The notes: generated by a model from the sequence alone, not told the origin. Positions 17,152 through 34,586 are shown, counted from the first letter of the stretch. The stretch: DNA of 64,000 nucleotides from Candidatus Latescibacterota bacterium (GCA_965243025.1 CBDETY010000003.1:1-64000); one strand, 5' to 3'. A program made the numbers and translations.

Positions 17152-18054
17152 CTACCCGGCGCCGGCCAGAACGGCGTCGATCGCCCCGAGCTCGTCGCCG
17201 CTGAAACGGACGCCGACGGCGCCGAGGTGGTCGTCGAGCTGACCGGGGTTCTTGGCGCCGACCAGGACCGTGCTGATCGCCGGCAGCCGCAGGATCCAGG
17301 CGATCGCCAGCTGCACCAGCGACAGCCCCTTGTCCGCCGCGAGCTCCGCAAGGCGGTCGGCGACCGCCACGGTGCGCGCGAACTGCTCCCCCTGGAAGTG
17401 TGCCCGCTCCGAGCGGTAATCGTCGTCGGCGAAGCGGTGCCCCGGCCGGTACCTGCCGGTCAGCAAGCCCTGTCCCAGCGGGCTGTACGCGAGGATGCCG
17501 ATGCCGTGCCCGGCGCAGAACGGGATGTCCTCCGCCTCGATGCCGCGGTCGAGCAGGTTGTAGCCGGGCTGGACCGACTGGAAGGGGGCGGTCTCCATGG
17601 CCCGGGCCATCTGCGCGGCGTTGTAGTTGGAGACGCCGATGTAGCGGGTCTTCCCCTCCTGGCGCAGCCGCTCCATCGCCTCCATGCTGGCCTCCACCGG
17701 GTATTCCGGGTTCCAGCCGTGGATCTGGTAGAGGTCGACATGGTCGACGGCGAGCTGCCGCAGGCTGTTCTCGATGGCGGCGCGGATCGCCCGGGGCGAG
17801 AAGTCGCCGCTCACCTTGGTCGCCAGGAAGCAGCGCTCGCGGTAGCCGCCGGCAAGGGCGCGTCCGACGATGCGCTCGCTGGCGCGGTAGCCCTGTGCCG
17901 TGTCGACCATGGTGATGCCGCGGTCGATGGCGGCGCGCACGGTGGCGACGGCCACCTCTTCGTCGACCGCGCCCATGGCCCCGCCGAAGGGCCAGGCCCC
18001 GAGGGCGATCGCGGGAACCTGCGGGCCGTTTCTTCCCAGCTGTCGATACTCCAT
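17152..18054 (-). CDS. Aldo/keto reductase
   Basis: DTAQGY, ATK, DLYQIH, IGVSNY, YSPLGQGLLTG. AGGAG RBS. Confidence 0.93.
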   Translation of the reverse strand: MEYRQLGRNGPQVPAIALGAWPFGGAMGAVDEEVAVATVRAAIDRGITMVDTAQGYRASERIVGRALAGGYRERCFLATKVSGDFSPRAIRAAIENSLRQLAVDHVDLYQIHGWNPEYPVEASMEAMERLRQEGKTRYIGVSNYNAAQMARAMETAPFQSVQPGYNLLDRGIEAEDIPFCAGHGIGILAYSPLGQGLLTGRYRPGHRFADDDYRSERAHFQGEQFARTVAVADRLAELAADKGLSLVQLAIAWILRLPAISTVLVGAKNPGQLDDHLGAVGVRFSGDELGAIDAVLAGAG

Positions 18055-18065
18055 GTGCACAGCTC

Positions 18066-18791
18066 CTACATCAGGTTCAGCCAGTCGCCGAGGAGGAACC
18101 TCGCGCGGCCGATCAGCAGCGACAGCCGCGCCATGATCGTGTACCCGAAGGAAGCGCCGAAGGAGATCATCAGCACCCAGACCCCCAGCTTCGAGACCAT
18201 GCCGACGGCGCCGCGGTGCTCGACGGAAAAGAAAAAGTAGACCAGCACTGAAACGACGCCGACAAGGATGATGAACAGGTCTAGGCCCGCCCAGGACAGG
18301 GTGATCGGCTGCAGGGTCGGTTCCACCTGTTTCAGGATGAAGGTCGAGATGTAGGCGGGGATCGTGAAGCCGGCCCCGAGGCCGACGAAGAACCCGAAGG
18401 CGATGCGGCTGGTCCAGCCGATGCGGGTGCTGAACCGGGTGAGCATCAGGATCCCGAGGACGGTGGGGAAAAGAACGAGCCAGGCGTTCTCCTTCCAGGC
18501 GCCGGCGTCCCCGAGCCGGGTGAGCTTGTCGATCACCTCGCCGTAGATGGTCGGGTACCAGGTCTGGCCGAACACGTAGGCCGCGGCGACGCCGACGAAG
18601 ATGTGCTCGGCGAGCTTGAACAGGGGGTTGTCGCGGTAGAGGAAGCTGTAGAGGGCCAGGGTAAGGCCGGCGGCGACGATAATCCCGAAGCCGGTCCAGT
18701 CGGGGCTGAGCTTGCCGGCGGCGAACAGGTAGGCGTTGGCCAGAGCGAAGAACAGCAGGACGGCGAGGAAGAGGATGGAATCGCGGTTCAT
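18066..18791 (-). CDS. Multi-pass membrane protein of GlmL-like operon
   Basis: About 7 hydrophobic helices; YSFLYRDNPLFKLAEHIFVG, FGASFGYTIMAR. ATGA-coupled to the upstream gene. Confidence 0.8.
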   Translation of the reverse strand: MNRDSILFLAVLLFFALANAYLFAAGKLSPDWTGFGIIVAAGLTLALYSFLYRDNPLFKLAEHIFVGVAAAYVFGQTWYPTIYGEVIDKLTRLGDAGAWKENAWLVLFPTVLGILMLTRFSTRIGWTSRIAFGFFVGLGAGFTIPAYISTFILKQVEPTLQPITLSWAGLDLFIILVGVVSVLVYFFFSVEHRGAVGMVSKLGVWVLMISFGASFGYTIMARLSLLIGRARFLLGDWLNLM

Positions 18792-19627
18792 TCCGGCCGT
18801 CTCCGCTGCCGGTGGCGAGCCGCGAAATAGGCGGCGTTCCCGACGAGGATGAAGAGGACGATGATCAGGTGGGTGACCGACTGGGCGCTCATTCCAGCGG
18901 ACGCTCCGCCGGGGTGGTCGATCAGCGCTTCGTATTCCGCGGCGCCGACCAGGCCCCCGATGAGGCCGCGCATCTGCCCCGACTGCAGGAACGGGTAGAG
19001 ATCCGGAGCCATCACCGCGGTGCAGCCGGCGGCGAAGGCGAGGTTGTGCCTTTCCTGACCGAACGGCAGCCACCAGAACTCGATGGAATCGCCGGCCGCC
19101 AGGTCGATCACCAGGTCGAAGTCCGAGAGACCGGCGACGGCCGCGGTCAGCGGCACCTCGGCGGTGGCGGTGCCCCAGTTGTCCTTCGGAAAGGCGTCGG
19201 CGAAGTCCTGGCCCATGTTGATGATGACGCTGTAGGTGCCTGGTTTGTACCCCATGAAGGCGTAATCATCGCCGTAGGTCTTTCCGAACTCCGCCGCGGT
19301 CTCCTCGAGCGCCAGCTGGGCGAGACCGGGGGCTTCCGGCCACAGGCAGACGGCGACGACGCCGACGTCTCTGCTGAAGAGGTGACGCAGCAGCGCCTTG
19401 GCCATCGGCTGCATTTCCGGTTCGGTGCTTGCTCCGTAGGCGAAGGAGAGCAGGACGAGGGCGCGGTCCTCCTTGCCCGCCACTTTCTCGATCTCGTCGA
19501 ATACCGCCCTGACCTGTTTCTTCGGCTCGACGGGAAACTTCAGATTCGACAGCAGGGGTATGGCGACCCCGAGAAAGACGGCGACGAAGATGATGCGCCG
19601 GTCGATGCCGAGAAGCCGGTCGATCAT
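18788..19627 (-). CDS. Membrane-anchored protein of GlmL-like operon
   Basis: N- and C-terminal TMs around an alpha/beta domain; PFLQSGQMRGLIGGLVGAAEYE. Stop/start overlaps. Confidence 0.8.
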   Translation of the reverse strand: MIDRLLGIDRRIIFVAVFLGVAIPLLSNLKFPVEPKKQVRAVFDEIEKVAGKEDRALVLLSFAYGASTEPEMQPMAKALLRHLFSRDVGVVAVCLWPEAPGLAQLALEETAAEFGKTYGDDYAFMGYKPGTYSVIINMGQDFADAFPKDNWGTATAEVPLTAAVAGLSDFDLVIDLAAGDSIEFWWLPFGQERHNLAFAAGCTAVMAPDLYPFLQSGQMRGLIGGLVGAAEYEALIDHPGGASAGMSAQSVTHLIIVLFILVGNAAYFAARHRQRRRPE

Positions 19628-20280
19628 TCCTCACCCCCTCCGACGTAGGAGCGCTCGATTCCGAAGATGATGCGCAGCGAGGTGGCGATGGCCCCGAGGC
19701 TCACCCCCAGAAGGATTCCGCGCTTTGCGGCGAGGTTGGGCACCGACATCAGCCAGTCCGCAAGGGCGGGAAGCGCACCGGAGATCATTTCCCCGATCGG
19801 GACGCGGCCGATCATGACGACGACGGCGGCCACGAGCAGGATGGCGGCGTCGGCGCTGCGGGCGCGGAAGGTGCGGTACGCAGCCGAGGCAATGAAGAAG
19901 GCCAGCATCGAGAACATCGTCGACGTACAGGGGACGTGGACGTTCTGGAACATCCACTGGTAGGCCCCCTCGGCGGCCTGCGGGGCGAACGGTCCGGCGC
20001 CGTCGTTGTGGAGGACGAAGAGGAACATGACGCCGAAGCTCGCCAGGGCGACGGCGTTGTACCCCCATCCGGCGACCCGCAGCCGGATGCGGCTCCAGTG
20101 CAGGTTGAGCAGGCTGAAGAGCCCGAGGAAGTAGGCGAAGGCGAAGGCGATGCGCAGCCACAGGGCAAGCTCGCGCTCGACCTCCTGCGAGGCGGGGTGG
20201 GGGATATAGTAGATCGCCACGGCGACGACGCCGAAGGCGAAGGCGGCCAGTACCGGAAGAGTGCGGCTCAGAAACAGCAT
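19624..20280 (-). CDS. Multi-pass membrane protein of GlmL-like operon
   Basis: STMFSMLAFFIASAAYRTFRAR, AAKRGILLG, LRIIFGIERSY. GGAG RBS. Confidence 0.8.
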   Translation of the reverse strand: MLFLSRTLPVLAAFAFGVVAVAIYYIPHPASQEVERELALWLRIAFAFAYFLGLFSLLNLHWSRIRLRVAGWGYNAVALASFGVMFLFVLHNDGAGPFAPQAAEGAYQWMFQNVHVPCTSTMFSMLAFFIASAAYRTFRARSADAAILLVAAVVVMIGRVPIGEMISGALPALADWLMSVPNLAAKRGILLGVSLGAIATSLRIIFGIERSYVGGGEE

Positions 20281-20289
20281 TTCTCCAGC

Positions 20290-21492
20290 CTAAAGCGCGG
20301 TGAAAAGTTGCGTGAGCCAGGGTTTTCCCCAGGCGGCCAGCAGGGAGCCGGCAACCAGGACGAACAGCAGCAGCCCCTTGCCGATGTCCTGCCCCTTGAG
20401 ACTGCCGAGCAGCCGGGGCTCGCGCGACAAGTAGGCGCTGGCGGCGTACAGCTCCTCGCCGAGGAGGGTGTAGTCGCAGGTGGTGACGAAGAACGGAAGC
20501 TGGGTGAAGGCGTCGGTGCCGGCGATCTGGATCGCCCCGGTGGAGGCCCCGGTCTCGGCCAGCAGCAGGGACTCGGCGTAGAAATACCCCATCATGATGT
20601 GGGCCGCCGGCTTCTCTCGCACCATGATCCCCTCGACCGCGGCGGCGTAGCTGAACTGGTCGGTGGCGGCGATGAAGATGTTGTCGGGGTTGAAGGCGTC
20701 GGGCCGCCCTGCCTCGATGTACGCCTCCTTCACCGTCTCCTGGCTTACCGACATGACCACCGGGTTGGAATTGGTCACTTTCAGCAGGGTGTCGTACTCG
20801 GCGGTGCGGCGGGCGACGCGGCCGAGGATGTTGACGGCGGCGATGGTGGAAATGGCGTCCATCTCGCGAAGGCCGTGGATGTAGAGCACCGATTTGCCCA
20901 TCTCGGTGGCGCGGCCCAGTGCCTCGTCGAGCGCCTCGAGGCCGGCGATGCGGCGCACGAAGAGCTCCTTTCTCTTCGCCATCGAGATGGAGATCAGGAT
21001 CGCCGCCGACAGCACCACCCCGAGGAGGAGGTTGTTGAGCTTGTTCCAGTTGAACAGCTGCGCCGTCGCCGTCGCCTCGACCGCCTTGCCGCGTCCCTCC
21101 CCCGCGGCGGTCTGCACCCCCACCCGGAGGAAGTAGGGGGTGCCGTTTTCCAGGGCCACGGACTCCCCCCCGGCTTCGTACTTCTCGACGTGGGCGAACT
21201 GGTGCCGGGCGGTCTCGGGACCGAACCCGAAGACCGCGGGATTCTCCGACTGCAGGCCGGCGCCGGCGGCAACCGAGGCGGCCAGGTGAAACGGTCCGTT
21301 TGCGAGCTCGGCTACGTAGATGTTGTAGACGGCGTCCCGGGGGGCGGCCTCGTCGAGCGGCCAGGTCACGGTGATGCTGCCGCCGCCGTCGTTCGGGGTG
21401 TCGAAGGCCTCGAAGCCCGGAGGGGCCGCGGCCTGCCCACCGACCAGGCAGGGAAACAGGAACAGCAGCAGCAGCGGGAAGGAGGGTTTCAT
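20290..21492 (-). CDS. Signal peptide plus FnIII-like plus DUF6754-like membrane protein
   Basis: Signal peptide, DTPNDGGGSITVTW beta domain, TM, RRIAGLEALDEALGRATEMGK, GYFYAESLLLAE, QLPFFVTTCDYTLLGEELYAASAYL. Family name recalled, not searched. Confidence 0.75.
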   Translation of the reverse strand: MKPSFPLLLLFLFPCLVGGQAAAPPGFEAFDTPNDGGGSITVTWPLDEAAPRDAVYNIYVAELANGPFHLAASVAAGAGLQSENPAVFGFGPETARHQFAHVEKYEAGGESVALENGTPYFLRVGVQTAAGEGRGKAVEATATAQLFNWNKLNNLLLGVVLSAAILISISMAKRKELFVRRIAGLEALDEALGRATEMGKSVLYIHGLREMDAISTIAAVNILGRVARRTAEYDTLLKVTNSNPVVMSVSQETVKEAYIEAGRPDAFNPDNIFIAATDQFSYAAAVEGIMVREKPAAHIMMGYFYAESLLLAETGASTGAIQIAGTDAFTQLPFFVTTCDYTLLGEELYAASAYLSREPRLLGSLKGQDIGKGLLLFVLVAGSLLAAWGKPWLTQLFTAL

Positions 21493-21692
21493 TCGATTCA
21501 ATGACGTGCGCCCTTCAGCCGGCTGAAGCCCGGCTGCACAGAGCTTTGCCGGCGCCGGCGGGATTCGGCGGCGCCTTGCACCCGGGTCGAGACCGGACCC
21601 CGGGCGCGAGGAGCAGTTTCCACGCCCCGTGCATCCGGGTTGAACCGGCCCTCGAACCGGGCGCTGTCCGATCTGGCAAATCTCCACCATCC

Positions 21693-22820
21693 TCACCGCT
21701 CGATCAGCTCTACGTTGGCGCGGGGTACCACCGCCCGGGTCCCGTCTTCGAACTCGACCTCCAGCACCCGCACCCGGGCCCCGCTTTCGACCGTGCGAAG
21801 CTCCGGAATCAGGGCGCGCACCCTGGCGACGCGCCCGAAATGGGGCGCGCGGATGACGCGCAGGGCGTCCCCCTCGGCCATACCCCCCGGATTCTCTTTC
21901 GCCGCGGTCGTCTCCGCAGTGTCCGGGCCGGGCGAAGGGATGATTATCTCGGGACGCTGGACCCCGGCGCGGATCTGGGTCGCACCCGAAATCGAGGCCT
22001 GCATGCCCTCGCACGAGCGCAGGATGTCGAAGGTATTGCGAGCCATGGCTATCTCACCGAACCCCTCGGTGACGATCAGGGTGGTGCCGATGTCCTCGGC
22101 CCCGGTTATGGCGACGCCGAGGTCGTAGCCGAGAAGCTCCTTGAGATCGCGGTCGTGGATGCCGCCGGCGATCACCCCTGCGGCCCCGGCCCCGGCGGCC
22201 CTCTGCAGCGCCTCGATGCCGGCGATTCCCCCGGCGACCAGCACTGCGCCGCCGCATCTCCCGTCGATCTGCCCTTCGCTCAGCGGTTCGTCGTGAGCCT
22301 GCGACAGGACCCGAAGCGGCCCCCAGCGCTCTCCGCCGATCCCGAAAATCCCCTGCACGTAGGCCCCTTCCGTCTCGACGACGACCCCCTCCCCCGGCAG
22401 CTCCTCGACGACCACGCCGTCGACGAAGGCGGGAATCTCGACGCGCGACGGCGGCTTGCGCAAGAGCACCTGGCCGGTCACCGGGGAGATGCTCTCGACG
22501 ATACCGTCGGTCTCTGCCGGGACAACGGTCTTGAACCACTTGATCCAGGGCCGCGTCTCGGCGAGCGGCTCTCCCTGACGCACCTGATCCCCCTCCGCTT
22601 TAAGCATGAAGCGGGCCAGATCGGCGGCGGGCACCCCGAGGCGATTGACGAGGTTCTGGGTCACCGCGTCTCCCGGCAGCTCGGTGCGGGCCACGACCTC
22701 GTCGCGGGCGACGCGGTCGCCGGCGCGAGCCGCGAGCTCGCCGGACAGCGGCAGCCGCCTCGTTTTGCGCAGCGTCGTGTGGCCGCTGACGCGCAGGCCG
22801 GGGGTGTAGGCGTGGGCCAT
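21693..22820 (-). CDS. Conserved hypothetical soluble protein (partner of GlmL-like ATPase)
   Basis: MAHAYTPGL start overlapping the upstream stop by 1 nt (TGATG); VQGIFGIGGE, TEGFG, GATQIRAGVQRPEIII, KOW-like C-terminus VPRANVE. Confidence 0.8.
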   Translation of the reverse strand: MAHAYTPGLRVSGHTTLRKTRRLPLSGELAARAGDRVARDEVVARTELPGDAVTQNLVNRLGVPAADLARFMLKAEGDQVRQGEPLAETRPWIKWFKTVVPAETDGIVESISPVTGQVLLRKPPSRVEIPAFVDGVVVEELPGEGVVVETEGAYVQGIFGIGGERWGPLRVLSQAHDEPLSEGQIDGRCGGAVLVAGGIAGIEALQRAAGAGAAGVIAGGIHDRDLKELLGYDLGVAITGAEDIGTTLIVTEGFGEIAMARNTFDILRSCEGMQASISGATQIRAGVQRPEIIIPSPGPDTAETTAAKENPGGMAEGDALRVIRAPHFGRVARVRALIPELRTVESGARVRVLEVEFEDGTRAVVPRANVELIER

Positions 22821-24652
22821 CAGCCCGGCTCCGTTGTGCCGGGGTAGGATCCGAGCGCCTCGTTCCAGGCCCGCACCTGTTCGCGGCGCCCGGCCGCCGA
22901 TGGAGCGAACTCGATCGGCCGCCCGCGCCCGTCGAGGAGGAGGCCGGCGGCCCCTCCGCGAACCCGCGAACTTGCAGCCCTGCCGATTCCCGCCCCGGCG
23001 TCCCAGCCGCGGGCGGGTTCGAGGGAGAGGTCGGCCTCCTCTTCTGCGGCGAGGTCGATGCGCACCAGCTCCCCGACATGCAGGCGGCCGGACACCGGTC
23101 CGGACGCTGCGCCTGTGAGGGTGAAGTCGCAGCAGGCCTCCCCCGGTTTGCCGCTGCCTGCCGGGGCCGCGCAGGTGCCCAGATCGATCAGGCAGTCGCG
23201 CTCGAAGACGTCGGAGGCGGCCTGTTCGTCCAACCCCGCCAGGGCGCCGAGGTGGGGCATCATGAAAATGCTGTCCACGGCGAGGCGGGTGATCCCCGCC
23301 GGTTCGAAGGCGTCGATCAGCATCGCCGCGGCCTGCACGCGGCGCGGGGCGTGGGAGAGCACTCCGCCGCTGCCGACGAGAAGGTCGAGGGCCGTCATGT
23401 CGATCAGGGATTCCCCGGTCGCCGACTGCTCGAAGACGTCGGACAGGGTGCGTTCCGACTGCACCCCCTTGAGGCCGACGGCGAGGGCGCGGTGCTGGAC
23501 GAAGGCGAGGCGCAGGGCCTCGCGCGCCAGGGCGTGCTCGAGCTGCAGCTCCTCGAGTTGCTGCGGTATGGTGGTCGGCCGGATCATCTTGTTCTTGATG
23601 CGGTCGCGCAGGTCTGTCTCCTCGATGTCGAACGGTATCCAGCGCATGGCGTTCTCCAGACCGGCCTCGTTGAGGACGTTGGAGATGCTGTAGGACATGC
23701 CGAGGTTGGCGCTGACCGAGCGGTTGAAGACCGGCTCCTCCCGGTCCGCGCCGCCGCCGGAGGGGGGGCGGAAGACGCTGAAGACGTCGGTGGTGGCGCC
23801 GCCGATGTCGACGCCGATGACGTCGATGCCCCGGAGGCGGGCGATCGTCTGAATGATCCTGCCGACCGCGGCCGGGGTCGGAACGATCGGCGCTCCTGTC
23901 CAGGTCATCAGCTTGCGGTACCCCGGGGCCTGCGCCATCACGTGCTCGAGGAAGAGGTCGTGGATCACCTGCCGGGCGGGACCGAGGTTCTCCCTCTCGA
24001 GCACCGGCCGCAGGTTCTCGGTAACGGTGAGGGCGGTCTTTTCGGCGAGGGTGTTTTCGATCTCGCCGCGGGCGTCGCGGTTCCCCGCGTAGATGAGGGG
24101 CAGCCGGAAGCCGCTGCCGAACCTCGGCTTCGGATCGGCCGCGGCGATGAACTCGGCGAGCTCGACGACGTGCGAGACGGTGCCGCCGTCGGTGCCGCCG
24201 GACAGCAGGAACATGTCGGGCCGCAGCCGGCGGATGCGCTCGATCTTCTCGTGGGGAAGCCGCCGGTCGTTGGCGGCGAGCACGTCCATGACGATGGCCC
24301 CGGCTCCCAGGGCGCAGCGCTGCGCGCTTTCCCCCGTCATCGAGGCGACCACCCCGGCCACCATCATCTGCAGGCCGCCCCCGGCGCTGCTCGTCGAAAT
24401 GTAGATGTCGACGCCGCGGTCCCCTTCCGCCGGAGTCAGGATCCGCTCCCCGTCGAGGATCGTCCGCCCCGACAGCTCCTCCACCTCGGCGATGGCGTTG
24501 AGCGCGCCGCGCGTCACGTCCTCGAAAGGAGCCTCGACAGTGGTCGGGGCCTCGCCGCGGAAGGTCTGCCGGCATACCCCGTCCGGCTGGCGCTCGATGA
24601 GGATCGCTTTCGTCGTGGTGCTGCCGCAGTCGGTGGCGATGAATACGTCCAT
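22820..24652 (-). CDS. GlmL (glutamate mutase L)-like ASKHA ATPase
   Basis: DCGSTTTK, SSAGGGL, LSGGTDGG, YAGN, PTPAAV, DIGGATTDVFS, GSGGVLSHAP. Confidence 0.87.
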   Translation of the reverse strand: MDVFIATDCGSTTTKAILIERQPDGVCRQTFRGEAPTTVEAPFEDVTRGALNAIAEVEELSGRTILDGERILTPAEGDRGVDIYISTSSAGGGLQMMVAGVVASMTGESAQRCALGAGAIVMDVLAANDRRLPHEKIERIRRLRPDMFLLSGGTDGGTVSHVVELAEFIAAADPKPRFGSGFRLPLIYAGNRDARGEIENTLAEKTALTVTENLRPVLERENLGPARQVIHDLFLEHVMAQAPGYRKLMTWTGAPIVPTPAAVGRIIQTIARLRGIDVIGVDIGGATTDVFSVFRPPSGGGADREEPVFNRSVSANLGMSYSISNVLNEAGLENAMRWIPFDIEETDLRDRIKNKMIRPTTIPQQLEELQLEHALAREALRLAFVQHRALAVGLKGVQSERTLSDVFEQSATGESLIDMTALDLLVGSGGVLSHAPRRVQAAAMLIDAFEPAGITRLAVDSIFMMPHLGALAGLDEQAASDVFERDCLIDLGTCAAPAGSGKPGEACCDFTLTGAASGPVSGRLHVGELVRIDLAAEEEADLSLEPARGWDAGAGIGRAASSRVRGGAAGLLLDGRGRPIEFAPSAAGRREQVRAWNEALGSYPGTTEPG

Positions 24653-24670
24653 TGCAGTTCCGGTCCGACG

Positions 24671-25042
24671 CTACTTGCTTTCCGCGCCGGTTGCCCGGTT
24701 GCCGCCCGGGCCGCCGCCGCGGGAGATGGCCACTACCAGGGCGTCGACGGCGCCGCGCTTCGCCAGCAGCCGGGTAAACCTTTTCAGCTCCCCGGGATTG
24801 AAGATCAGCGAGATGAAGGGGCTGAGGAAGACGAGCAGCTGGCTGCCGACGAAGTTGAACGGCCGCCCCACTTCGAGGAGCATGACGGCCGGCGCCGCCA
24901 GTCCGCGGCGGACGAGGAAGTCGGCGACGCGGTCGATCAGCTCCTGCTCCGACTCGTCGATGGCGCGGTCGGCAGCCGGTTCGACGGCGAAGGCGTGCGA
25001 GCACCAGGCCCGCAGCCGCTCAACCCGGGACATGAGGTCCAA
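24671..25042 (-). CDS. Conserved hypothetical protein
   Basis: RRGLAAPAVMLLEVGRPFNFVGSQ; operonic spacing. Alternative ATG at 25033. Confidence 0.7.
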   Translation of the reverse strand: MDLMSRVERLRAWCSHAFAVEPAADRAIDESEQELIDRVADFLVRRGLAAPAVMLLEVGRPFNFVGSQLLVFLSPFISLIFNPGELKRFTRLLAKRGAVDALVVAISRGGGPGGNRATGAESK

Positions 25043-25451
25043 CCAGATCCTCGAGTTTCTTCACCCCGACCCCCGAGGCCGGAAGGAAGAGGCCCCGGTA
25101 GCTGTCGAGACGGCTGGGGCGGGGGAACGGGCTGAGAAACAGCCCGTCCTCGCGGACCTCCACCCGCCGTATTTCCTCCCAGGCTCGCAGCCGCCGCCGG
25201 AACAGGTGGCTCACGGCGACCCCGGAGGCGCCGATCTCGTAGCTCGTCGGCAGGAGAAACCGCGACATCGATCCGCTGAGAACCGCCAGGGCGATGACGC
25301 CGTACAGGAGCCCCTCGAAAGCGGCCGCGGCGAGGGCGGAGAAAGCGAGGATCGCCGCCACCAGGGCCGCGGATTTCGGCCACGGCTCTTCAACCAGAGG
25401 GTGGCAGACCCAGGAACAGCGGGCCGCGCCGGCCCGGGTTTCGCCCTTCAT
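25020..25451 (-). CDS. Two-TM hypothetical protein with possible PH-like domain
   Basis: Two hydrophobic helices, then FLLPTSYEI...W..IRRVE...LSPF...SRLDSYRGL. Confidence 0.65.
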   Translation of the reverse strand: MKGETRAGAARCSWVCHPLVEEPWPKSAALVAAILAFSALAAAAFEGLLYGVIALAVLSGSMSRFLLPTSYEIGASGVAVSHLFRRRLRAWEEIRRVEVREDGLFLSPFPRPSRLDSYRGLFLPASGVGVKKLEDLVGPHVPG

Positions 25452-25798
25452 CGGATAATCGGGTGACACGAATGGTTATGGGCAGTAAGGCTCGGGAGCT
25501 TGGGAAACAGGGAGGCAGCCGGGAGGGCAAGAGTAACTCCGGCGATGCCGGCCGGCAACTGCCCGGGAGGTTGGCAAACATCGAGGGGCGCCCCCCGGTA
25601 CTGGAGAAACCCCTGATGGATAAATCTCCTGATCAAAATGGATTTTTTTCGATGTACACTTTTTTTTGACCAGAGGGTCAATCGATCCGTTGATTTCATC
25701 GATATTCGTTGACATCTGGAATCAGCCCTGCGCAATTCCCCCAAAGATGCATGTTGCGGCTCATGTGAAAAGGTTCATCGGCCAACCCAACCACCCTG

Positions 25799-26038: not shown

Positions 26039-27754
26039 GTGATGAAACCCGGAACCTTTCCAAACCTGGCATCGATGATTCCTGTTGCAGGCCTCCTCCT
26101 GCTGGCCCCCCTGGCGCAGGCACAGGCCCAATGCGTACTCCCTGAAGGCGCGACCCCTCCTGAGGAACCCGAGGTGACGGCGCAACAGGTGGAAGAGGGC
26201 AGCGCGGCCCTGATGGACTTCGCACTGGGCGCAAGAGACCAGTTCAAGCTCATGTCCGAGGTGGGTGGGGCGACAGCCTACCACTTTGGATGCCTCATCC
26301 GGCAGGAGGGGGGTCCCTGGCGTTCCGGTTCCACCTACCTCGTGCAACTGACACTCGACGGCAGGGTCTTCGTTCACGCCAAGGAAATGGCGTTGTCGGG
26401 CAGACTCCTCGATCGCAGGATTCTTGCGGGGATCCTCGTTTCGCTGGGCGTCTCCCGGGAGGATCTGGCCGACCCGGCTTCCGTTCTGAACACCTTGCTG
26501 GAAGAGCCGCATGCCCCGTTTGATCTGACACTGCTCGGTGCCTCCGGCTATGCCACCGCCTACGCCAGGGCTCATCGACCGGACCCGCTGATCCTGCTTG
26601 CCGGGTTCGATCTCGACGCGTCTCACGTGGTGGAGGAAGAGATCGATTACGGCGACCCGGCCATCACGGCCGGGGAGGTGGTCGACCGCGAGAGCCTGGA
26701 GGCCTTCGTCACGCAGGCGGGAGGTTACTTCATCGAAGGTTTGAGGACCGGCGGCCGAGCCGCCGTCTCGAGAGTCAAGGTTGCCATGCGGGACCCGAAC
26801 GGGCCCTGGAGACACGGCTCCGTGTACCTCTACGTCCTGGATCTCGCCAGCAACCTCATCCTGTTTCACGGCGTGAATCCGGACAGGTACGAGCTGCGGC
26901 CCCTGGTGGCGACTGTCCGGGATGTCGTTACCGGAGAGCTCATTCTGCCGCAGGTCATCGAAGCGGCGAAGAGCAGCCCGGAAGGCGGCTTCGTGGAGTA
27001 TTTCTTCGACGATCCCACCGACGACACCGACAGCGCCGATGTCCCCAAGGTGGGTTACGCCCGCCAGTTCAGAGGTGAACGATTCAACGTCATCATCGGG
27101 TCGGGCTTTTATGGAAGCGCACCCGAGGAACCCGAAGTTGTTGCCGATGGTCCCGGCACCGAAGTGGAGGTCACGGTCCTGGGCGAGGCCGTCGAGGGGT
27201 TGACGGTGGAGTTTTCCCGCGCCATTGCCGGCCGTTCCCGCGATTTCGCCTGGAACGCGACCACCGATGCTTCCGGCCAGGCGTCCCTGATTATTTCGGG
27301 GAGGCAGGTGAGCGGGTTCTATCAGGCCAGAGCCCGCAACATTGACGGCGAGGTCGTCGGTCAGTGGCACAGCATTCCCCTCAACCGCAACAGACGCCAG
27401 GTCCTGGAACTGACGCTGGGCGGCGGCATGAGGGTTGTACGCGTCGAATCACTGGCGGCGGCCAAGGCAGTGGCGGCGGCAGGCGGGCTGGGACCCAATG
27501 CGCCCAACCCCTTCAACAGCGAAACGCAGATCGCCTACCGCCTGTCCAGCCCCGGCGCGGTGCAGCTGGTGGTCTACAATGTGCTGGGCCAGCCGGTGCG
27601 CACCCTGGTGAATGAGTTCCAGGCCGCCGGCACCTACCAGGTCCAGTGGGATGCCCGCGACCAGCAGGGCGCCTCGCTGTCGTCGGGGATCTACATCACC
27701 CGTCTCAGCTATCCCGGAGGGGTGCAGACGCGCCGGCTGCTCTACCTCAAATAG
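26039..27754 (+). CDS. Secreted protein with tandem Cache-like domains and FlgD-like C-terminal domain
   Basis: Signal peptide, GPWRxGSxY repeated twice, GGFVEYFFDDP...KVGYA, NAPNPFN...YNVLGQPVRTLV...WDARD...SGIY. AAGGAG RBS. Confidence 0.8.
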   Translation: MMKPGTFPNLASMIPVAGLLLLAPLAQAQAQCVLPEGATPPEEPEVTAQQVEEGSAALMDFALGARDQFKLMSEVGGATAYHFGCLIRQEGGPWRSGSTYLVQLTLDGRVFVHAKEMALSGRLLDRRILAGILVSLGVSREDLADPASVLNTLLEEPHAPFDLTLLGASGYATAYARAHRPDPLILLAGFDLDASHVVEEEIDYGDPAITAGEVVDRESLEAFVTQAGGYFIEGLRTGGRAAVSRVKVAMRDPNGPWRHGSVYLYVLDLASNLILFHGVNPDRYELRPLVATVRDVVTGELILPQVIEAAKSSPEGGFVEYFFDDPTDDTDSADVPKVGYARQFRGERFNVIIGSGFYGSAPEEPEVVADGPGTEVEVTVLGEAVEGLTVEFSRAIAGRSRDFAWNATTDASGQASLIISGRQVSGFYQARARNIDGEVVGQWHSIPLNRNRRQVLELTLGGGMRVVRVESLAAAKAVAAAGGLGPNAPNPFNSETQIAYRLSSPGAVQLVVYNVLGQPVRTLVNEFQAAGTYQVQWDARDQQGASLSSGIYITRLSYPGGVQTRRLLYLK

Positions 27755-28048: not shown

Positions 28049-29104
28049 TCAACTCCAGGCTTCCCCGAGCAGGCGGATCCAGTTGCCGTGCATGATTGCG
28101 GCGATGTCGCCTGAGGTGTACCCGCGCTTCTCCAGCAGGGCGGGGATGCGCTGCAGATCGGCGATCGTGTCGATGTCGGCGGGGCTCTGCTCCTTGCCGT
28201 AGCCGCCGTCGAGGTCGGTGCCGATGGCGGCGTGGCGGGCGCTGCCCGCAACCTGGCAGACGTGGTCGATGTGGTCGACCACCGTGTCCAGGGTGATGCC
28301 GGTGTTGTCGGCCGCCTCGCGGTCCCAGAGGGGGGACAGCATCCAGGCGTCGAAGGCGGCGCCGATGATCCCGCCGCGCTCGACCAGCGCCTCGATCTGC
28401 CGGTCGTCGAGCTGGCGGTCGTGGTCGCACAGGGCGCGGCAGCAGTTGTGGGTGGCGATGACGCGCCCGCCGAAGACCTCCAGGGCTTCACGGAACGCCT
28501 GTTCGGCCAGGTGGCTGACGTCGAGGATCATGCCGGCCCGCTCCAGCTCCTTCAGCATCGGCGCTCCCCTCGGGGTCAGGCCTCCGGGTGCCTGGGTGCC
28601 GTGGGAGTAGGAGCTGATCCCGTAGTGGCAGAGGCTGACGATGCGCAGACCCTCGTCCCACCACTCCGCCACCTGCTCCTCGTCGACGATGCCGTCGGCC
28701 CCCTCCATCGAGAGCACGTAACCGAGCGGCGTCGAGGCGCTGTCCTGCTCCCAATTCCGCAGGTGGGCGTCGAGGCCGGCGGCGTCGCGGATCTGCCTGA
28801 GAACCCCCTTCGCCTCCATAAGGCGGTAGTAGGCGACCTCGCCGCGGCACTTGGCGCAGGCGATGTCCTGGGTGCGCACCCCGGGGAAGCGCTTGCCCAC
28901 CGAGGCCAGACGGCAGCCGCAGGTCGCCACGAACAGGCCGATTTCGCCGCGGCGCAGCTCGTCGAAGCAGACGACGTTGAGGCCGCGGCCCTTGCCGCCC
29001 ATCCCGGCCTCGGACTCCCGGATCGCGGCAATCGGCTGCAGCAGGTCGCGGTCCCACTCCAGGGCGTTGTGGGCGATATCGAGGTGTGAATCGACGATCA
29101 GCAT
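28049..29104 (-). CDS. Membrane dipeptidase (peptidase M19)
   Basis: DSHLD, SMEGAD, DVSHL, ATHN, HIDH, IGTDLDG. Confidence 0.9.
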   Translation of the reverse strand: MLIVDSHLDIAHNALEWDRDLLQPIAAIRESEAGMGGKGRGLNVVCFDELRRGEIGLFVATCGCRLASVGKRFPGVRTQDIACAKCRGEVAYYRLMEAKGVLRQIRDAAGLDAHLRNWEQDSASTPLGYVLSMEGADGIVDEEQVAEWWDEGLRIVSLCHYGISSYSHGTQAPGGLTPRGAPMLKELERAGMILDVSHLAEQAFREALEVFGGRVIATHNCCRALCDHDRQLDDRQIEALVERGGIIGAAFDAWMLSPLWDREAADNTGITLDTVVDHIDHVCQVAGSARHAAIGTDLDGGYGKEQSPADIDTIADLQRIPALLEKRGYTSGDIAAIMHGNWIRLLGEAWS

Positions 29105-29302
29105 GGGGTTCACTCCGGCAGGTCGGGTTGTATGTGGTCAGGGACACAGGAGCTGGCGCAGGAAGGGCACGGTTTCAGGAAATCGCTCCGGCGGTGCCAG
29201 GCGTGGATTCGGCAACGGGCGGCCGGACATGGCCGCGGCCAGCCTGAAGTTCCGGCGCAAGCGGGGGGAGCCGGCGGTTCCGAACCGCTCAATCGAATTC
29301 CC

Positions 29303-30256
29303 TCAACCGCACAGCTCGGCGAGCAGCTCTTTCCAGCTGCCCCGCTCCCGCTCCGGATCGACCAGCCCTGCCCGCTCGGAGCAGTGCCGGCGCAGCCGGC
29401 GCAGGAACAGGTCCTCCTCCTCGCAGCGCAGCATCAGGTCGGCGAGGGCGCGGGTGTCACCGACCGGGAAGTACCCGGGGTACTCCTCGCCGAGGAGGCC
29501 GACCGATCCGTCGATGCGGCTGGAAAGCACGGGAACCCCGCAGGCGAGGGCCTCGCAGACGACGTGGGCGCCTCCCTCCATTTTCGAGGTCAGCACGAGA
29601 GCGCGGCTGCGGGCGATCTCGCGCACCGCCCGCCACCGCGGCAGCTCCCCGAGCCAGCGGTAGCGCCGGTTTTCACGCTGCTCCCGCTGCGCCCTGACCG
29701 CCATGTCGTCGCTGAGCGCGGCACCGGAATGGCGCACCCGGACGCGCGACCGGGGCGGCAGCAGGCGGCTGGCCTCGGCGGCGCGGAACGGATCCTTGAC
29801 CGGGCGCAGGTGGCCGACCACCGAGAGGTTGAAGGTGCGCGCCCGCGAGGGGGGTTCGCGGCGCGGGGGAACGATCGACTGGTAGATGACGCGGGCGCGG
29901 CCGCGAAACCGTTCGGGCAGGGAGGCCGCGCCGAGGGCCTGCAGCACGACGAAGCGGTCGGCCAGCTCGAGGGATCCCTGCGCCTCGGGGTCGACGTGGA
30001 TGTCCTCGTAGAGATCGGTGCCGGTAAGGGCGAGGACGACCGGCCGTTCCGGGTGGGCGGCGGCGAAGCGCGCCAGCGAAGCCGCCGAACGCCGCGCGTG
30101 CAGGGCCACCAGCAGGTCGGGTTGCTGGCGCCGGAACTCCCCGGCCACGGCGACGGTGTGTCCGAGCTCCCGCAGGATGCGCCGCCAGCGCATCGCCGTG
30201 ACCCGGTTCCCCTTGCGCGAGCCGGGGGGCGCCGGGGTTACGATCAGGATCTTCAC
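29303..30256 (-). CDS. senB: Selenosugar synthase SenB (GT4-fold glycosyltransferase)
   Basis: GNRVTAMRW, ALHARRS, LTGTDLY, GHLRPVKDP, SKMEGGAHV. Adjacent to senA and selD. Alternative start 30319. Confidence 0.9.
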   Translation of the reverse strand: MKILIVTPAPPGSRKGNRVTAMRWRRILRELGHTVAVAGEFRRQQPDLLVALHARRSAASLARFAAAHPERPVVLALTGTDLYEDIHVDPEAQGSLELADRFVVLQALGAASLPERFRGRARVIYQSIVPPRREPPSRARTFNLSVVGHLRPVKDPFRAAEASRLLPPRSRVRVRHSGAALSDDMAVRAQREQRENRRYRWLGELPRWRAVREIARSRALVLTSKMEGGAHVVCEALACGVPVLSSRIDGSVGLLGEEYPGYFPVGDTRALADLMLRCEEEDLFLRRLRRHCSERAGLVDPERERGSWKELLAELCG

Positions 30257-30386
30257 GGGGCTCGCCGCACCCGGCGGGGGTGCCGGGGTCCGGAGAACCC
30301 GGGTATCGCTCGTCGCCACTCCAGGCAGCGGCTCTCCCGATCTCCGGAACCTGCCCCGGCGAAACGCCCGGCCCCCCCGCCCGCGG

Positions 30387-31694
30387 TCACAGCGCGCACG
30401 TGCGGAACCCGGTGAGGACGTCGCGGCGGTCCTGGGTCTGGAAGTTGCGGTAGTTGCTGCGGATCAGCCGCGAGCGCGTCGCCCAGCAGCCGCCGCGCAT
30501 CACCTTGCGGGTCCCGAACCACGGCTCGGAGTAATCCTTGTAGGGATCCGGGGTGAATCCCGGGAAGGGCTGGAAATCCGAGCTCGTCCACTCCCAGACG
30601 TTGCCGATCATCTGGCGGCAGCCGTGGGCGCTGTCCCCGGCGGGAAAGGCGCCGACGTCGACGGTCCCCATGCCGCGCCAGTCGAGGTTGGCGAGGTCCG
30701 GTGCGGGCGGGGCGTCGCCCCAGGGAAAACGGCGTTTTGCCGACCCGGGATCGAGGCCCCCCGGGGCCGGGCAGGTCGCCGCCGCGGCCTCCCACTCCGC
30801 TTCGGTCGGCAGGCGCCTGCCCGCCCAGCGGCAGTACGCGTCCGCCTCGAACCAGTTGACGTGGATGACCGCCTTGTGCGGCTCGAGCGGCACCAGGGAA
30901 TCGAAGTGCCGGCGCTCCCATCCGCCGCCGCCCCGGCGGAAGTAGCAGTGTCCGGCCGCGTCGTTCCGCAGCCGCCACTCCCAGCCTTCGCCGCACCAGT
31001 GCTCCCGCTGTTCGTAGCCGCCGTCGTCGATGAAGGCGGCGTACTCCCCCTGGGTGACGCAGGCGCGGGCGATGCGGAAGGGCTCCAGCTCCACCGCGAA
31101 CGCCCACTTCTCGTTGTCGAACACGAACGGCTCCTCCGGCGTCGACCCGAGCAGGAAGGCGCCGCCCGGGACCTCGACGTCTCCCGGCAGGGGGCCGCCC
31201 CCGGGGACTGCGGCCCCGTCCAGGCCGGAGATCTTCGGCGGCGGGTAGCCGTGGGTCTGGCGCGTGTACGTGAACGCCTCGGTGTGCATGTCCTCGTGCA
31301 GGGTGCTGTACAGGGCGTGGTACAGCAGCTCTTCGGAAGGCTCGGAGGCGAGGTGCCGCAGCAGCCGGTCGCGGACCTCGCGCATGTACTCCAGGGTCTC
31401 GTCGCGCGATGGCAGCGGCAGGCCCCAGCGCGTGTCGTGGGCGATCTCCATCGAGTCGTAGAGGGCGTCCTCGTCGGGGCGGACCGGGGGCTCGCCGCAG
31501 GCGTGCCGGAGCGCCCACACCGACTGGAACCAGGCGTGGTGGCCCATCTCCCAGAGGCCGGGGTTGACGATGGAGAGCTCCGGTCCCATAAGCTGCTCGT
31601 CGCTGAGGTCGCCGACGAGCTCGAAGGTGCGCTCCCTGGCGTCTCTCACCCATCCTGCCAGCTCTTCCGCCGATACCAGTTGTCGGACCGACAT
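30387..31694 (-). CDS. senA: Selenoneine synthase SenA (EgtB-like DinB plus FGE-sulfatase fold)
   Basis: NPGLWEMGH, HEDMHTEAFTYTRQ iron motif, FVFDNEKWA, RLPTEAEWE, GNVWEW, YRNF, GFRTC. Context with senB and selD. Confidence 0.9.
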   Translation of the reverse strand: MSVRQLVSAEELAGWVRDARERTFELVGDLSDEQLMGPELSIVNPGLWEMGHHAWFQSVWALRHACGEPPVRPDEDALYDSMEIAHDTRWGLPLPSRDETLEYMREVRDRLLRHLASEPSEELLYHALYSTLHEDMHTEAFTYTRQTHGYPPPKISGLDGAAVPGGGPLPGDVEVPGGAFLLGSTPEEPFVFDNEKWAFAVELEPFRIARACVTQGEYAAFIDDGGYEQREHWCGEGWEWRLRNDAAGHCYFRRGGGGWERRHFDSLVPLEPHKAVIHVNWFEADAYCRWAGRRLPTEAEWEAAAATCPAPGGLDPGSAKRRFPWGDAPPAPDLANLDWRGMGTVDVGAFPAGDSAHGCRQMIGNVWEWTSSDFQPFPGFTPDPYKDYSEPWFGTRKVMRGGCWATRSRLIRSNYRNFQTQDRRDVLTGFRTCAL

Positions 31695-31858
31695 GCTTGT
31701 TTCCCTGTTGCTTTTCCTGTTGCGGCTAAGGAGAATCCTGCTGCCCCTGAGTGTAGTCAGTCCCCGGTTCGGGGCAACCGCGTTGCCTCGGGGCCGCGGC
31801 CTGAATAAGTTGTCGCCCCCACCGAAAGCCCCAACCATCCGCGAACCGACGAATACCG

Positions 31859-32911
31859 ATGGCCCTGTCGAAAGACAAAACCCTGACCAGCCTCGCCAAG
31901 ACCTGCGGGTGAGCGGCCAAGGCGAGCCCGGTCGGGCTCGAGAAGCTGTTGGCCCGCCTGCCGCGCAAGTCGGACCCCAACCTCCTGGTCGGGTTCGAGA
32001 CCAGCGACGACGCCGGCGTCTACCGGCTCGGGGAGGACACGGCGATGGTCGTCACCGCGGACTTCATCACGCCGCCGGTAGACGACCCGTTCACCTTCGG
32101 CCAGATCGGCGCCGCCAACTCCCTGAGCGACGTGTACGCGATGGGGGGGCGGCCGGTCGCCTGCCTCAACCTGATCGGGTTCCCTTCGGACGATCTCGGC
32201 CCCGAGGTGCTGCACGGTATCGTCGAAGGGGCGCTGAGCAAGATCACCGAGGCCGGGGCGGTGCTGGCCGGCGGCCACACCACCAACGACGACGAGCCGA
32301 AGTTCGGCCTCTCGGTCACCGGGCTGGTGCACCCGGACAGGTACTGGCGCAACGCCGGGGCCCTTGCCGGGGACGCCCTGATACTGACCAAGCCGATCGG
32401 CAGCGGCGTGATCTTCAACGCCAACCTGAAAGGCATGCTTCCCCGCCAAGCCCTGGAGGAGACCCTCGCCGTGCTGACCGACCTGAACAGGACGGCGGCC
32501 GAGACCCTGGCCCGGTTCGACGTGCACGCGGCGACCGACATCACCGGCTTCGGGCTCGCCGGCCACGCCCTGGAGATGGCCCGGGGATCCGGGGTGACCC
32601 TCGAAATCGACGTCGACTCGCTGCCGACCCTGCCGCGGGCCCTGGAGATGTACGAGCGCGGCGTCACCACCGGGGCGAACGCGGAAAACCGCGAGCAGGT
32701 CGGGGAGGCGGCCCTGTACGAGAAGGAGCTTCCGGGAAAGCAGGGGGAGATCCTGGTCGACCCGCAGACGAGCGGGGGCCTGTTCGCCGCGGTTCCCCAA
32801 GCCCAGGCCGCCGCGGCGGTCGACGCCCTGCACGAGGCCGGCGTCGAGGCGGCCTGCATCGCCGGCCGCGCCGTCGACCTTTCGCCGCCGCACTACCTGA
32901 AGTTCCGGTAG
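31859..32911 (+). CDS. selD: Selenide, water dikinase SelD/SenC; selenoprotein (Sec at codon 18)
   Basis: MALSKDKTLTSLAKTCG-TGA(31910-31912)-AAK is in frame with track ORF 31949..32911. DDAGVY, DFITP, SDVYAMGG, GGHT, TDITGFG, DPQTSGGL. Confidence 0.93.
31923..31940 (+). promoter_or_regulatory. SECIS-like hairpin of selD
   Basis: UGA-N10-CGAGCCC-GGUC-GGGCUCG, a perfect 7-bp stem with a G-led loop. Confidence 0.8.
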
Positions 32912-32995: not shown

Positions 32996-33856
32996 GTGCA
33001 ACTTCGCAGGATCTGCCTTGCCCTGACCCTTGCCCTTGCCACCCAGGCATCGGCCGCGGACCAGTTCCGCTTCACCGCGATTCCCGATCAGAACACCGCC
33101 CGTCTCAAGGAGCGCTTCGACCGCGTCGCCGTGTACCTCTCGGGAAAGCTGGGTATCGACGTCCAGTACATACCGGTCAAGTCGTACGCGGCGTCGGTGA
33201 ACGCCTTCAAGAACGACGAGGTGCAGCTCGCCTGGTTCGGCGGCCTGTCCGGCGTCAAGGCGCGGCGCGCCGTGCCCGGATCCCAGGCGATCGCCCAGGG
33301 GGAAGAGGACCTTCAGTTCGTCACCTACTTCATAGCCAACGCCAGCACCGGCATCGAGCCGTCCGACGAATTCCCCGCGGCCATCGCCGGCCGCACCTTC
33401 ACCTTCGGTTCCAAGGGGTCGACGTCGGGCCGCCTGATGCCGGAGTTCTTCATCAGGCAGCATTTCGAGAAATCGCCTGACGAAGTCTTCAAGCGCGTCG
33501 GCTTCAGCGGCGACCACTCCAAGACCCTCGCCCTCGTGCAGTCGGGCAGCTACGAGGCCGGGGCCCTCAACTTCAAGGTGTTCGACAAGGAGAAGGCCGC
33601 GGGCAACGTCGACTCGACCAAGGTCAGCATCATCTGGCGCACCCCGACCTACCCCGACTACAACTGGTCGATCCGCGGCGACGTCGAGGAGAAATACGGG
33701 GAGGGGTTCACAGCCAAGGTCAAAGACGCGCTGCTCGCCCTCGACGACCGCGAGATTCTCGACCAGTTCCCGCGCACCCGCTTCATCGCCGCGGACAACT
33801 CGATGTACGCCTCCATACTCGAGACCGGGACCGCCATCGGCATCTTCGAGGAATGA
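32996..33856 (+). CDS. PhnD-like (putative selenate) ABC substrate-binding protein
   Basis: Signal peptide, FTAIPD, AWFGGLSGV, GSTSGRLMP, GFSGDHSKT, TPTYPDYNW. Follows selD; AGGAGG RBS. Confidence 0.85.
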   Translation: MQLRRICLALTLALATQASAADQFRFTAIPDQNTARLKERFDRVAVYLSGKLGIDVQYIPVKSYAASVNAFKNDEVQLAWFGGLSGVKARRAVPGSQAIAQGEEDLQFVTYFIANASTGIEPSDEFPAAIAGRTFTFGSKGSTSGRLMPEFFIRQHFEKSPDEVFKRVGFSGDHSKTLALVQSGSYEAGALNFKVFDKEKAAGNVDSTKVSIIWRTPTYPDYNWSIRGDVEEKYGEGFTAKVKDALLALDDREILDQFPRTRFIAADNSMYASILETGTAIGIFEE

Positions 33857-33887
33857 TCCCGGTGATGCCGCAGTCGCGCAGGGAACC

Positions 33888-34568: not shown

Positions 34569-34586
34569 AACTGGCGTTCACCCCCG

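Follow-up and report, generated by a model that had tools for sequence, protein, structure and literature searches.

Proteins with an actin/Hsp70 fold sit on the cytoplasmic or matrix face of several membrane complexes, among them FtsA, PilM, GspL and the mitochondrial Hsp70 at TIM23, and at TIM23 the Hsp70 motor spends ATP on the movement of cargo. Here we describe a unit of eight genes (g1 to g8) that occupies positions 18066-25469, all on the minus strand, of a 64,000-nt stretch of DNA from Candidatus Latescibacterota bacterium (the whole stretch is called the window below) and whose third gene encodes an ATPase of the same general fold. Its closest described relatives are GlmL/MutL and Or-4, which have the Pfam family, the ASKHA fold and both phosphate loops in common with g3; a glmL/glutamate mutase cluster has been described in Escherichia coli, and GlmL has been called a chaperone, in PMC4682846. 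In contrast to GlmL and Or-4, g3 carries about 120 extra C-terminal residues, is always accompanied by g2 and g4 and usually by a membrane cassette, and belongs to a genome in which no mutase match was obtained. No sequence or partner similarity was found with FtsA, PilM, GspL or mitochondrial Hsp70/TIM23, and g4 and the four membrane subunits of the unit have no counterpart in those systems. Among described systems the unit has no match, and it occurs widely in bacteria that have been little studied. We propose, with about an even chance of being right, that it forms one two-module system, in which a shared ATPase-partner module would energise interchangeable membrane cassettes.

The window is rich in G+C (0.63-0.72) and for that reason contains many spurious open reading frames; all eight frames of the unit are real genes, with homologues in other genomes at 28-94% identity. 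An earlier reading of the same DNA (the original prediction) had put forward eight co-oriented genes with mostly tight junctions and an end of the unit at 25451; the unit is real and all eight genes lie on the minus strand, although 25451 is an internal ATG of g1, whose frame runs to 25469. Transmembrane (TM) segments of all eight proteins are hydropathy calls, and junctions were derived from the coordinates. The first gene, g1 (25020-25469, 149 aa), encodes the expected protein with two hydrophobic helices (33-51 and 54-72) and overlaps g2 (24671-25042, 123 aa), the small protein that had also been expected, which has one hydrophobic segment (62-80). After a spacer of 18 nt follows g3 (22820-24652, 610 aa), an ASKHA ATPase of PF13941 without TM segment, which has 1 nt in common with g4 (21693-22820, 375 aa), soluble and devoid of TM segments as had been anticipated. 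A spacer of 179 nt between g4 and g5 (21514-21692) is the sole sizeable gap of the unit and lies exactly between the two modules described below; Rfam and promoter scans gave neither an Rfam match nor a promoter-like site in it. An internal promoter may lie in this spacer. Beyond this spacer lie g5 (20290-21513, 407 aa), with a signal-peptide-like start, a fibronectin type III (FnIII) domain, a DUF6754 domain and two helices; 9 nt further on, g6 (19624-20280, 218 aa), polytopic with about six TM segments; g7 (18788-19627, 279 aa), with one TM segment at either end; and g8 (18066-18791, 241 aa), again polytopic with about six TM segments, the g6/g7 and g7/g8 junctions being overlaps of 4 nt each. 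Three further membrane proteins had been predicted after g5 and are indeed present, with the correction that g7 is bitopic and not polytopic.

The organisation of the unit was compared across 80 loci anchored on g5 and drawn from named public genomes, the record titles of which refer to Latescibacterota, Gemmatimonadota, Planctomycetota, Handelsmanbacteria, Oligoflexia, Nitrospiria, Myxococcales, WOR-3, Stahlbacteria and Coatesbacteria; one record (L043), that of a cultivable carrier, is titled Gemmatimonas phototrophica. On one strand, g5-g6-g7-g8 follow one another in 65 loci out of the 67 whose downstream flank reaches 2.4 kb (the exceptions being L062 and L070); where the upstream flank reaches 3.3 kb, g2-g3-g4-g5 do so in 37 of 61 loci; and all eight genes stand in order in 30 of the 80. 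The original prediction had mentioned similar gene sets in other deep-branching prokaryotes, and gene order is conserved in loci of many phyla. The remaining 24 of the 61 loci, without g3/g4 upstream of g5, belong mostly to WOR-3, Stahlbacteria and similar groups; in WOR-3-type genomes with unlinked modules g3 was located elsewhere in five of five cases, at 62-64% identity, with g2 directly upstream in four (L091, L092, L093 and L095) and g4 downstream in one. In two other loci (L053 and L070) g2 adjoins g5 without g3/g4, and since it is found beside g3 in the unlinked loci and beside g5 alone in these two, g2 accompanies either module. The unit consists of two separable modules, a soluble module (g2-g3-g4) and a membrane cassette (g5-g8). 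The remaining gene, g1, is a lineage-specific accessory gene for a two-helix membrane protein: of the 54 loci whose upstream flank reaches 4.2 kb, 30 have it in order with the other seven, and it was not found in WOR-3-type loci, and its match to bPH_6 (PF10756) scores 21.9 bits (gathering threshold 22, E 1.8e-4) and spans only positions 5-38 of 73.

The presence of the two modules was also followed through whole phyla. Among 151 genomes of the window's own phylum (including G000), DUF6754 and the g4 profile were each detected in 126, with 124 genomes having both and 23 neither; in this count five genomes without a match (G077-G081), absent from both match lists, were taken as identical in both searches. 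The discordant genomes, two with DUF6754 only (G070 and G073) and two with g4 only (G156 and G074), are all 60-87% complete. Both genes are missing from two families of this phylum (f10, 0 of 13; f6, 0 of 2), and close relatives without DUF6754 have neither g4 (0 of 5) nor PF13941 above its cut-off (0 of 5), two of these genomes being 91-93% complete in 1 and 5 contigs. In the phylum of the WOR-3-type genome G041, represented by 61 genomes, both modules are present in 56, neither in 3 and each alone in 1. Two to seven DUF6754 matches occur in 53 of the 57 positive genomes of this phylum (1.4-3.3 Mb), most genomes having one full-length g4 match. On the complete chromosome of G041 at least three cassettes are full, one of them having g5 twice in tandem, and two more are partial or divergent. 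The g3 gene of this chromosome is divided between two sites about 2 Mb apart (L103 and L104), an N-terminal half (residues 4-327) behind g2 and a C-terminal half (276-608), and a single g4 stands isolated at a third site. In some phyla one soluble module stands alongside several membrane cassettes. Most of the genomes sampled in the two phyla have the system (126/151 and 57/61), and it was found in none of 14 well-known genomes searched as controls, an absence which would explain why it has escaped study.

The product of g3 matches PF13941 (MutL) with 421 bits (gathering threshold 27, E 6.8e-126), and both DCGSTTTK and DIGGATTD are present in its translation, as claimed when a 610-aa ATPase was first proposed here. 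All 30 aligned sequences are identical over D8-K15, D282-D289 and S428-H434, which we take to be the phosphate-1, phosphate-2 and adenosine loops. Identity to 29 orthologues from several phyla is 63-92% (63-78% across phyla); 285 of 487 columns of the core are at least 90% conserved, and the C-terminal extension of about 120 aa is looser (26 of 123). Judged by its sequence, g3 is not a helper of a B12-dependent mutase, and the database name 'glutamate mutase L' is wrong, a routine mis-annotation that misleads metabolic reconstructions of uncultured bacteria. It scores below the cut-off of all three relevant NCBIfam models, namely NF040745 (GlmL equivalog; 232 bits versus 475), NF040744 (Or-4; 203 versus 600) and TIGR01319 (GlmL family; 172.1 versus 204.05, with 173.8 for a WOR-3-type orthologue), whereas the GlmL of E. 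coli O157:H7 Sakai, the positive control, passes two of them (510.7 bits for NF040745 and 898.5 for TIGR01319). The control glmL gene is flanked by genes annotated as glutamate mutase S and E. In the window's genome (96.2% complete, 3 contigs) g3 is the sole PF13941 gene, and searches of the whole genome gave no match to PF06368 (glutamate mutase E) or PF01642 (methylmalonyl-CoA mutase), nor to PF09043 (lysine aminomutase), for which the negative is weak because the control gave no signal anywhere; OraE-specific models lay outside the search. The window had been said to lack B12-dependent mutase genes, and this now extends to the genome for these profiles, so that g3 and a B12-dependent mutase do not strictly co-occur; PF02310 (B12-binding) has four matches, each more than 600 kb from the window.

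Two partners accompany g3 in the soluble module. For g2, which is without a match in Pfam or NCBIfam, the conserved hydrophobic helix has the consensus LESxRPLNFLGSQxLxFLxPF, and P61, P75 and R96 are invariant in an alignment of 34 sequences; its start codon is uncertain, as homologues align from M4, and a role as an adaptor is possible. The g4 protein falls into four parts. It begins with an invariant peptide, which is followed by a barrel-sandwich hybrid domain at about 16-150, a swivelling domain of the beta/beta/alpha type at about 152-297 and, at about 311-375, a KOW/SH3-like domain; all parts but the peptide are covered by an AlphaFold2 model with a predicted local distance difference test (pLDDT) score of 85.3. 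In comparisons with VIA-align the barrel-sandwich hybrid resembles NqrA (Z 7.6-7.8) and RnfC (Z 7.7) over about 60-64 residues and BCCP (Z about 7.2); the swivel domain resembles enzyme I of the phosphotransferase system (PTS; Z 9.7, root-mean-square deviation (rmsd) 2.6, 106 residues aligned), rifampin phosphotransferase (Z 9.3) and RraA (Z 9.0); and the third domain resembles the KOW domain of NusG (Z 8.0). Foldseek agrees with these matches. As these Z values fall within what the tool calls common, or slightly above it, they name folds and not families. A biotinyl/lipoyl carrier (PF00364) was considered for g4 and set aside, as the match reaches 17.7 bits against a cut-off of 22.1 and the fold resemblance just Z about 7.2; residues 16-150 contain no Lys among the invariant or at least 90% conserved columns. 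The g4 family comprises 1033 representatives (50% clustering, E <= 1e-30), and its 59 long homologues are mostly g3-g4 fusions of about 1000 aa. In three relatives from one genus of the window's own family (G143, G122 and G119) the g4 match lies inside open frames of 909-996 residues, which suggests g3-g4 fusions in close relatives too.

The first gene of the membrane cassette is g5, whose DUF6754 domain (PF20539) matches with 385.1 bits (gathering threshold 27, E 1.6e-115) over positions 2-256 of 257. A signal peptide, an FnIII- or Ig-like part and a DUF6754-like part had all been read from its sequence beforehand, and the FnIII fold is confirmed by the profile match to the titin Fn3 in the PDB (E 1.9e-11) and by VIA comparison of the model (Z 9-10.3, rmsd 2.1-2.9, 89-101 residues aligned, model residues 26-156); Pfam fn3 has no match in the window's g5, and when the g5 model was searched for similar folds, FnIII matches filled the list. 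By the positive-inside rule the protein would consist of a signal peptide, an FnIII head outside, a TM helix, DUF6754 inside and a C-terminal TM helix. Conservation differs sharply along it: among 47 orthologues the mean top-residue frequency is 0.36 in the FnIII head versus 0.70-0.83 in DUF6754, and columns conserved to 90% or more number 6 of 121 in the head and 77 of 195 in DUF6754; the six g5 paralogues of G041 are 38% identical in the head and 65% in DUF6754. Long forms of g5 (745 proteins of 714-2035 residues) are frequent; in five of five scanned, DUF6754 forms the C-terminal part and is preceded by the 330-1200 additional residues, the heads including a BamB-like beta-propeller, or FnIII with an RGI-lyase sheet. 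Across g5 proteins the outer head varies and is modular in build, and the putatively cytoplasmic DUF6754 stays constant. DUF6754 itself is common, with more than 7,900 matching clusters (90% identity, E <= 0.001) among the 8000 candidates scored; proteins of PF20539, of which g5 is a full-length member, are annotated as 'fibronectin type III domain-containing protein', and the family has merely been catalogued.

The two six-helix subunits of the cassette are strongly conserved. An alignment of 41 sequences of g6 contains 24 invariant residues and one of 41 sequences of g8 contains 28. The window's g6 has no Pfam family; 13 of the 41 g6 orthologues weakly match TMD0_ABC (best E 1.2e-5), probably owing to composition, and 2 of 41 match ABC2_membrane_3, the window's g6 matching neither. 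Between the end helices of g7 lies a domain of about 220 aa, which by its charge distribution would be outside; this middle domain is 38% identical among the G041 paralogues, and the residues invariant among 38 aligned g7 sequences include E71, H82, D121 and D149. No consistent Pfam match was obtained for g7 or g8, the closest Atlas clusters of g7 are unnamed, and the Atlas search gave no usable named match for DUF6754. Sequence and profile searches of the PDB returned nothing meaningful for g3, the DUF6754 part of g5, g6, g7 or g8. Paralogy between subunits was also considered, and no relation was detected by hhalign (probability 0.4% for g5 versus g7 and 0.2% for g6 versus g8).

The gene content and order, the co-occurrence, the copy ratios, the domain folds and the pattern of conservation are observations; contact between the modules, ATP hydrolysis, topology, direction and the kind of work done are all inferred in the mechanism that we propose. 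The soluble module, made of g2, the ASKHA ATPase g3 and the three-domain partner g4, would bind and hydrolyse ATP in the cytoplasm and would dock on the constant cytoplasmic DUF6754 of the four-subunit inner-membrane cassette g5-g8; it would drive conformational work within the cassette, whose outer face would present a variable, exchangeable head (here one FnIII) together with the g7 domain. The head and the g7 domain would most likely choose what is moved or acted on, be it in substrate transport or export or in mechanical work on the envelope. Several cassettes could be served by one soluble module, with g1 as a lineage-specific accessory. The unit probably uses ATP for work across the cell membrane. 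A conserved ATP-binding module, a constant docking domain and many cassettes with exchangeable heads are best fitted by a shared energiser, and the invariant ASKHA nucleotide-binding loops, the g3-g4 fusions, the conserved gene order, the co-occurrence and the copy ratio all favour it; the modelled folds of g4, which are typical of mobile or peripheral coupling domains, are on the same side.

Several observations weigh against a shared energiser. Contact and ATPase activity are predictions, and the extreme conservation of g3 would fit an enzyme too. Residues 285-352 of g5, its most conserved stretch, are modelled with pLDDT below 50 (compared with about 90 over residues 30-150, the FnIII part), and as a result the cytoplasmic placement of DUF6754 depends on the positive-inside rule. 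Few conserved charges lie mid-membrane in g6 and g8, where the invariant residues are mostly in loops, so that neither a substrate path nor an ion path is clearly indicated. The co-occurrence counts are descriptive and are not tests, because kin genomes are not independent and kinship inflates such counts, and two genomes depart from the pattern, one with cassettes without g4 (G217) and one the reverse (G193). The sole g4-g5 'fusion' (P0121) is probably a read-through or a gene-calling artefact, since the signal peptide sits in the middle of the protein and the sequence is cut at its end. A complex prediction for g4, g2 and g5 (150-407) scored 0.00 and gave no answer either way.

Among the other explanations the best placed, although an unlikely one, is that g3-g4 acts as a non-motor ASKHA scaffold of the FtsA/PilM type or as an Hsp70-like assembly or repair factor, the complex being powered by other means. 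ASKHA proteins are known as membrane-complex scaffolds, the nearest named relative, GlmL, has been given the name of chaperone in the source cited above, and the co-occurrence and the one-to-many ratio fit this explanation equally well. However, invariant nucleotide-binding loops and an extraordinarily conserved core exceed the usual needs of a scaffold, and Pfam and NCBIfam scans of the eight proteins revealed no ABC ATPase (ATP-binding cassette) and no other energy source encoded in the unit.

Next in standing, and likewise not to be expected, is an arrangement in which g3-g4 would be a cytoplasmic ATP-dependent enzyme, kinase- or ligase-like as are the hydantoinase/oxoprolinase relatives, acting on a compound imported by the cassette, in a form of group translocation or metabolic channelling. 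A weak Pfam match of g3 to Hydantoinase_A, the very high conservation of g3 and the resemblance of the g4 swivel to PTS enzyme I and rifampin phosphotransferase are all in keeping with it. Against this, no invariant His is found in residues 152-297 of g4, whose sole invariant His (H3) is outside the domain, and a phospho-His relay is therefore unlikely; for g4 as a mobile phospho-histidine domain of the phosphoenolpyruvate (PEP)-utilising type, the fold matches (Z 9.3-9.7) but the conserved acceptor His is missing. Moreover, widely differing cassette heads are hard to square with a single substrate, the neighbouring genes vary by lineage and include no constant metabolic one, and Rfam searches revealed no riboswitch in the window or in nine loci (which gave rRNA and tRNA only).

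Signalling, with the cassettes as receptors whose variable sensor heads report to a shared ATPase much as chemoreceptors report to CheA, is decidedly improbable in our judgement. The combination of a variable outside with a constant inside, and of many cassettes with one soluble module, is what such a system would display, and one long g4 homologue (P0177) carries an N-terminal XRE-type helix-turn-helix fused to g3-g4; yet no output domain (kinase, cyclase or DNA binding) is present in the window's unit or in 58 of the 59 long forms, and two strongly conserved six-helix subunits per cassette exceed what a sensor needs. That the ATPase pair and the membrane cassette are two unrelated neighbouring systems with separate functions is very unlikely: the modules are unlinked in 24 of 61 loci and the complex prediction remained without an answer, but they are present or absent together in both sampled phyla even when unlinked, close relatives have lost both together, and g2 accompanies either of them. 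A GlmL-type reactivase of a coenzyme-B12-dependent mutase can be dismissed almost entirely, for membership of g3 in PF13941 and its 28% identity to E. coli O157:H7 Sakai GlmL over 450 residues are outweighed by NCBIfam scores below every cut-off, by the mutase-free searches of its genome, by the distance to the nearest B12-binding domain and by its constant linkage to g2, g4 and the cassette instead.

The surroundings of the unit were also inspected. An aldo/keto reductase gene (17152-18060, minus strand) lies 5 nt downstream of g8 and in the window is probably transcribed together with the unit; it was left outside the unit because it follows g8 only here and in one record of the same genus (L011). 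Divergently oriented, at 26039-27754 on the plus strand, lies a gene for a secreted protein of 571 aa that combines sensor domains of the Cache type with an FlgD_ig-like domain at its C-terminus; this gene is not conserved beside the unit elsewhere. Further on are an M19 membrane dipeptidase (28049-29113), a group-1 glycosyltransferase (29303-30319, minus strand), an EgtB-type protein with DinB_2 and FGE-sulfatase domains (30387-31838, minus strand) and an AIR-synthase/SelD-like protein (31949-32911, plus strand), the last three of which (29303-32911) presumably resemble the senB/senA/senC cluster of selenoneine biosynthesis; a phosphonate-type ABC transporter follows at 32996-36104, with the binding protein confirmed and the ATPase and permease judged from translations alone.

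In other lineages the neighbours are different. In eight WOR-3/Stahlbacteria loci (including L066 and L067) a DUF4388 gene comes after g8 at a median distance of 5.5 nt, and in seven a gene for a six-domain ribosomal protein S1 precedes g5 (median 9 nt). About 17-22 Gemmatimonadota/Latescibacterota loci (such as L037, L047 and L027) have recurrent co-oriented neighbours that are absent from the window, namely a family-5 solute-binding protein upstream, a protein with CarboxypepD_reg and Plug domains (TonB-receptor-like) downstream, and further a 747-aa protein without assignment and a class IV aminotransferase. The solute-binding protein, the aminotransferase, the TonB-receptor-like protein, S1 and DUF4388 were each considered as clues to function and rejected, as each is limited to a single lineage. 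The promoter and terminator scan was uninformative, with no promoter-like site and 8 terminator-like sites, versus 4.8 +/- 2.2 expected, and selenocysteine at in-frame stops of g3 homologues was ruled out, these stops being real gene ends. In contigs of one RNA-library run (X1), parts of g3, g4, g5, g8 and the g5/g6 junction have counterparts with 90-99% likeness, a weak hint that relatives express genes of the unit, as DNA can occur in such RNA libraries.

No described system matching the unit was found in Pfam, NCBIfam, PADLOC, PDB sequences or Rfam, and the membrane proteins, which the original prediction had allowed might match a characterised transporter, have no such match in the first four of these. 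Anti-phage defence yielded no family for any of the eight proteins in PADLOC-DB 2.0 (E <= 0.01). Likewise, no paper on DUF6754, PF13941 or the unit was found in a literature search whose scope left aside supplementary tables, which could hold proteomic or transcriptomic mentions. If the ATPase drives the cassette, the unit would represent an unrecognised coupling of ATP to work across the cytoplasmic membrane, and the cell-envelope biology of Gemmatimonadota, Latescibacterota, Planctomycetota, Nitrospirota, WOR-3 and others would have a major unknown in it. Tentatively, and with more doubt than confidence, one may go further and regard it as a new class of primary ATP-driven membrane machine, in which an actin/Hsp70-fold ATPase with a swivel-domain partner would take the place of an ABC, P-type or AAA+ ATPase, a shared energiser would serve interchangeable four-subunit cassettes and modular heads would determine the cargo or target; such a machine would be widespread across dozens of bacterial phyla, most of them uncultured, and absent from the model organisms searched.

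Two groups of known systems invite comparison. Na+-NQR and Rnf, like the unit, contain a pair of six-helix subunits together with a bitopic one that has an outer domain, and the barrel-sandwich hybrid domain of NqrA/RnfC resembles the N-terminal domain of g4; in contrast to them the unit has no cofactor motif, and the Z values of the domain match lie in the range called common. A relation of g6 and g8 to the Rnf/Nqr membrane subunits (PF02508) was examined and rejected, hhalign against the genome's own PF02508 protein giving probabilities of 0.3% and 0.2%, respectively, with no Pfam match. The second group comprises the PTS (enzyme I and HPr with many enzymes II), energy-coupling factor (ECF) transporters and TonB-ExbBD, which have in common with the unit the logic of about one soluble module to at least two cassettes with variable outer parts. 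No sequence relation links these systems to the unit, and although the swivel fold is common to PTS enzyme I and the central domain of g4, the latter is without the invariant His. The likeness is one of working logic and not of membership, with the part played elsewhere by a PEP-dependent, ABC or proton-driven energiser taken here by a putative ASKHA ATPase.

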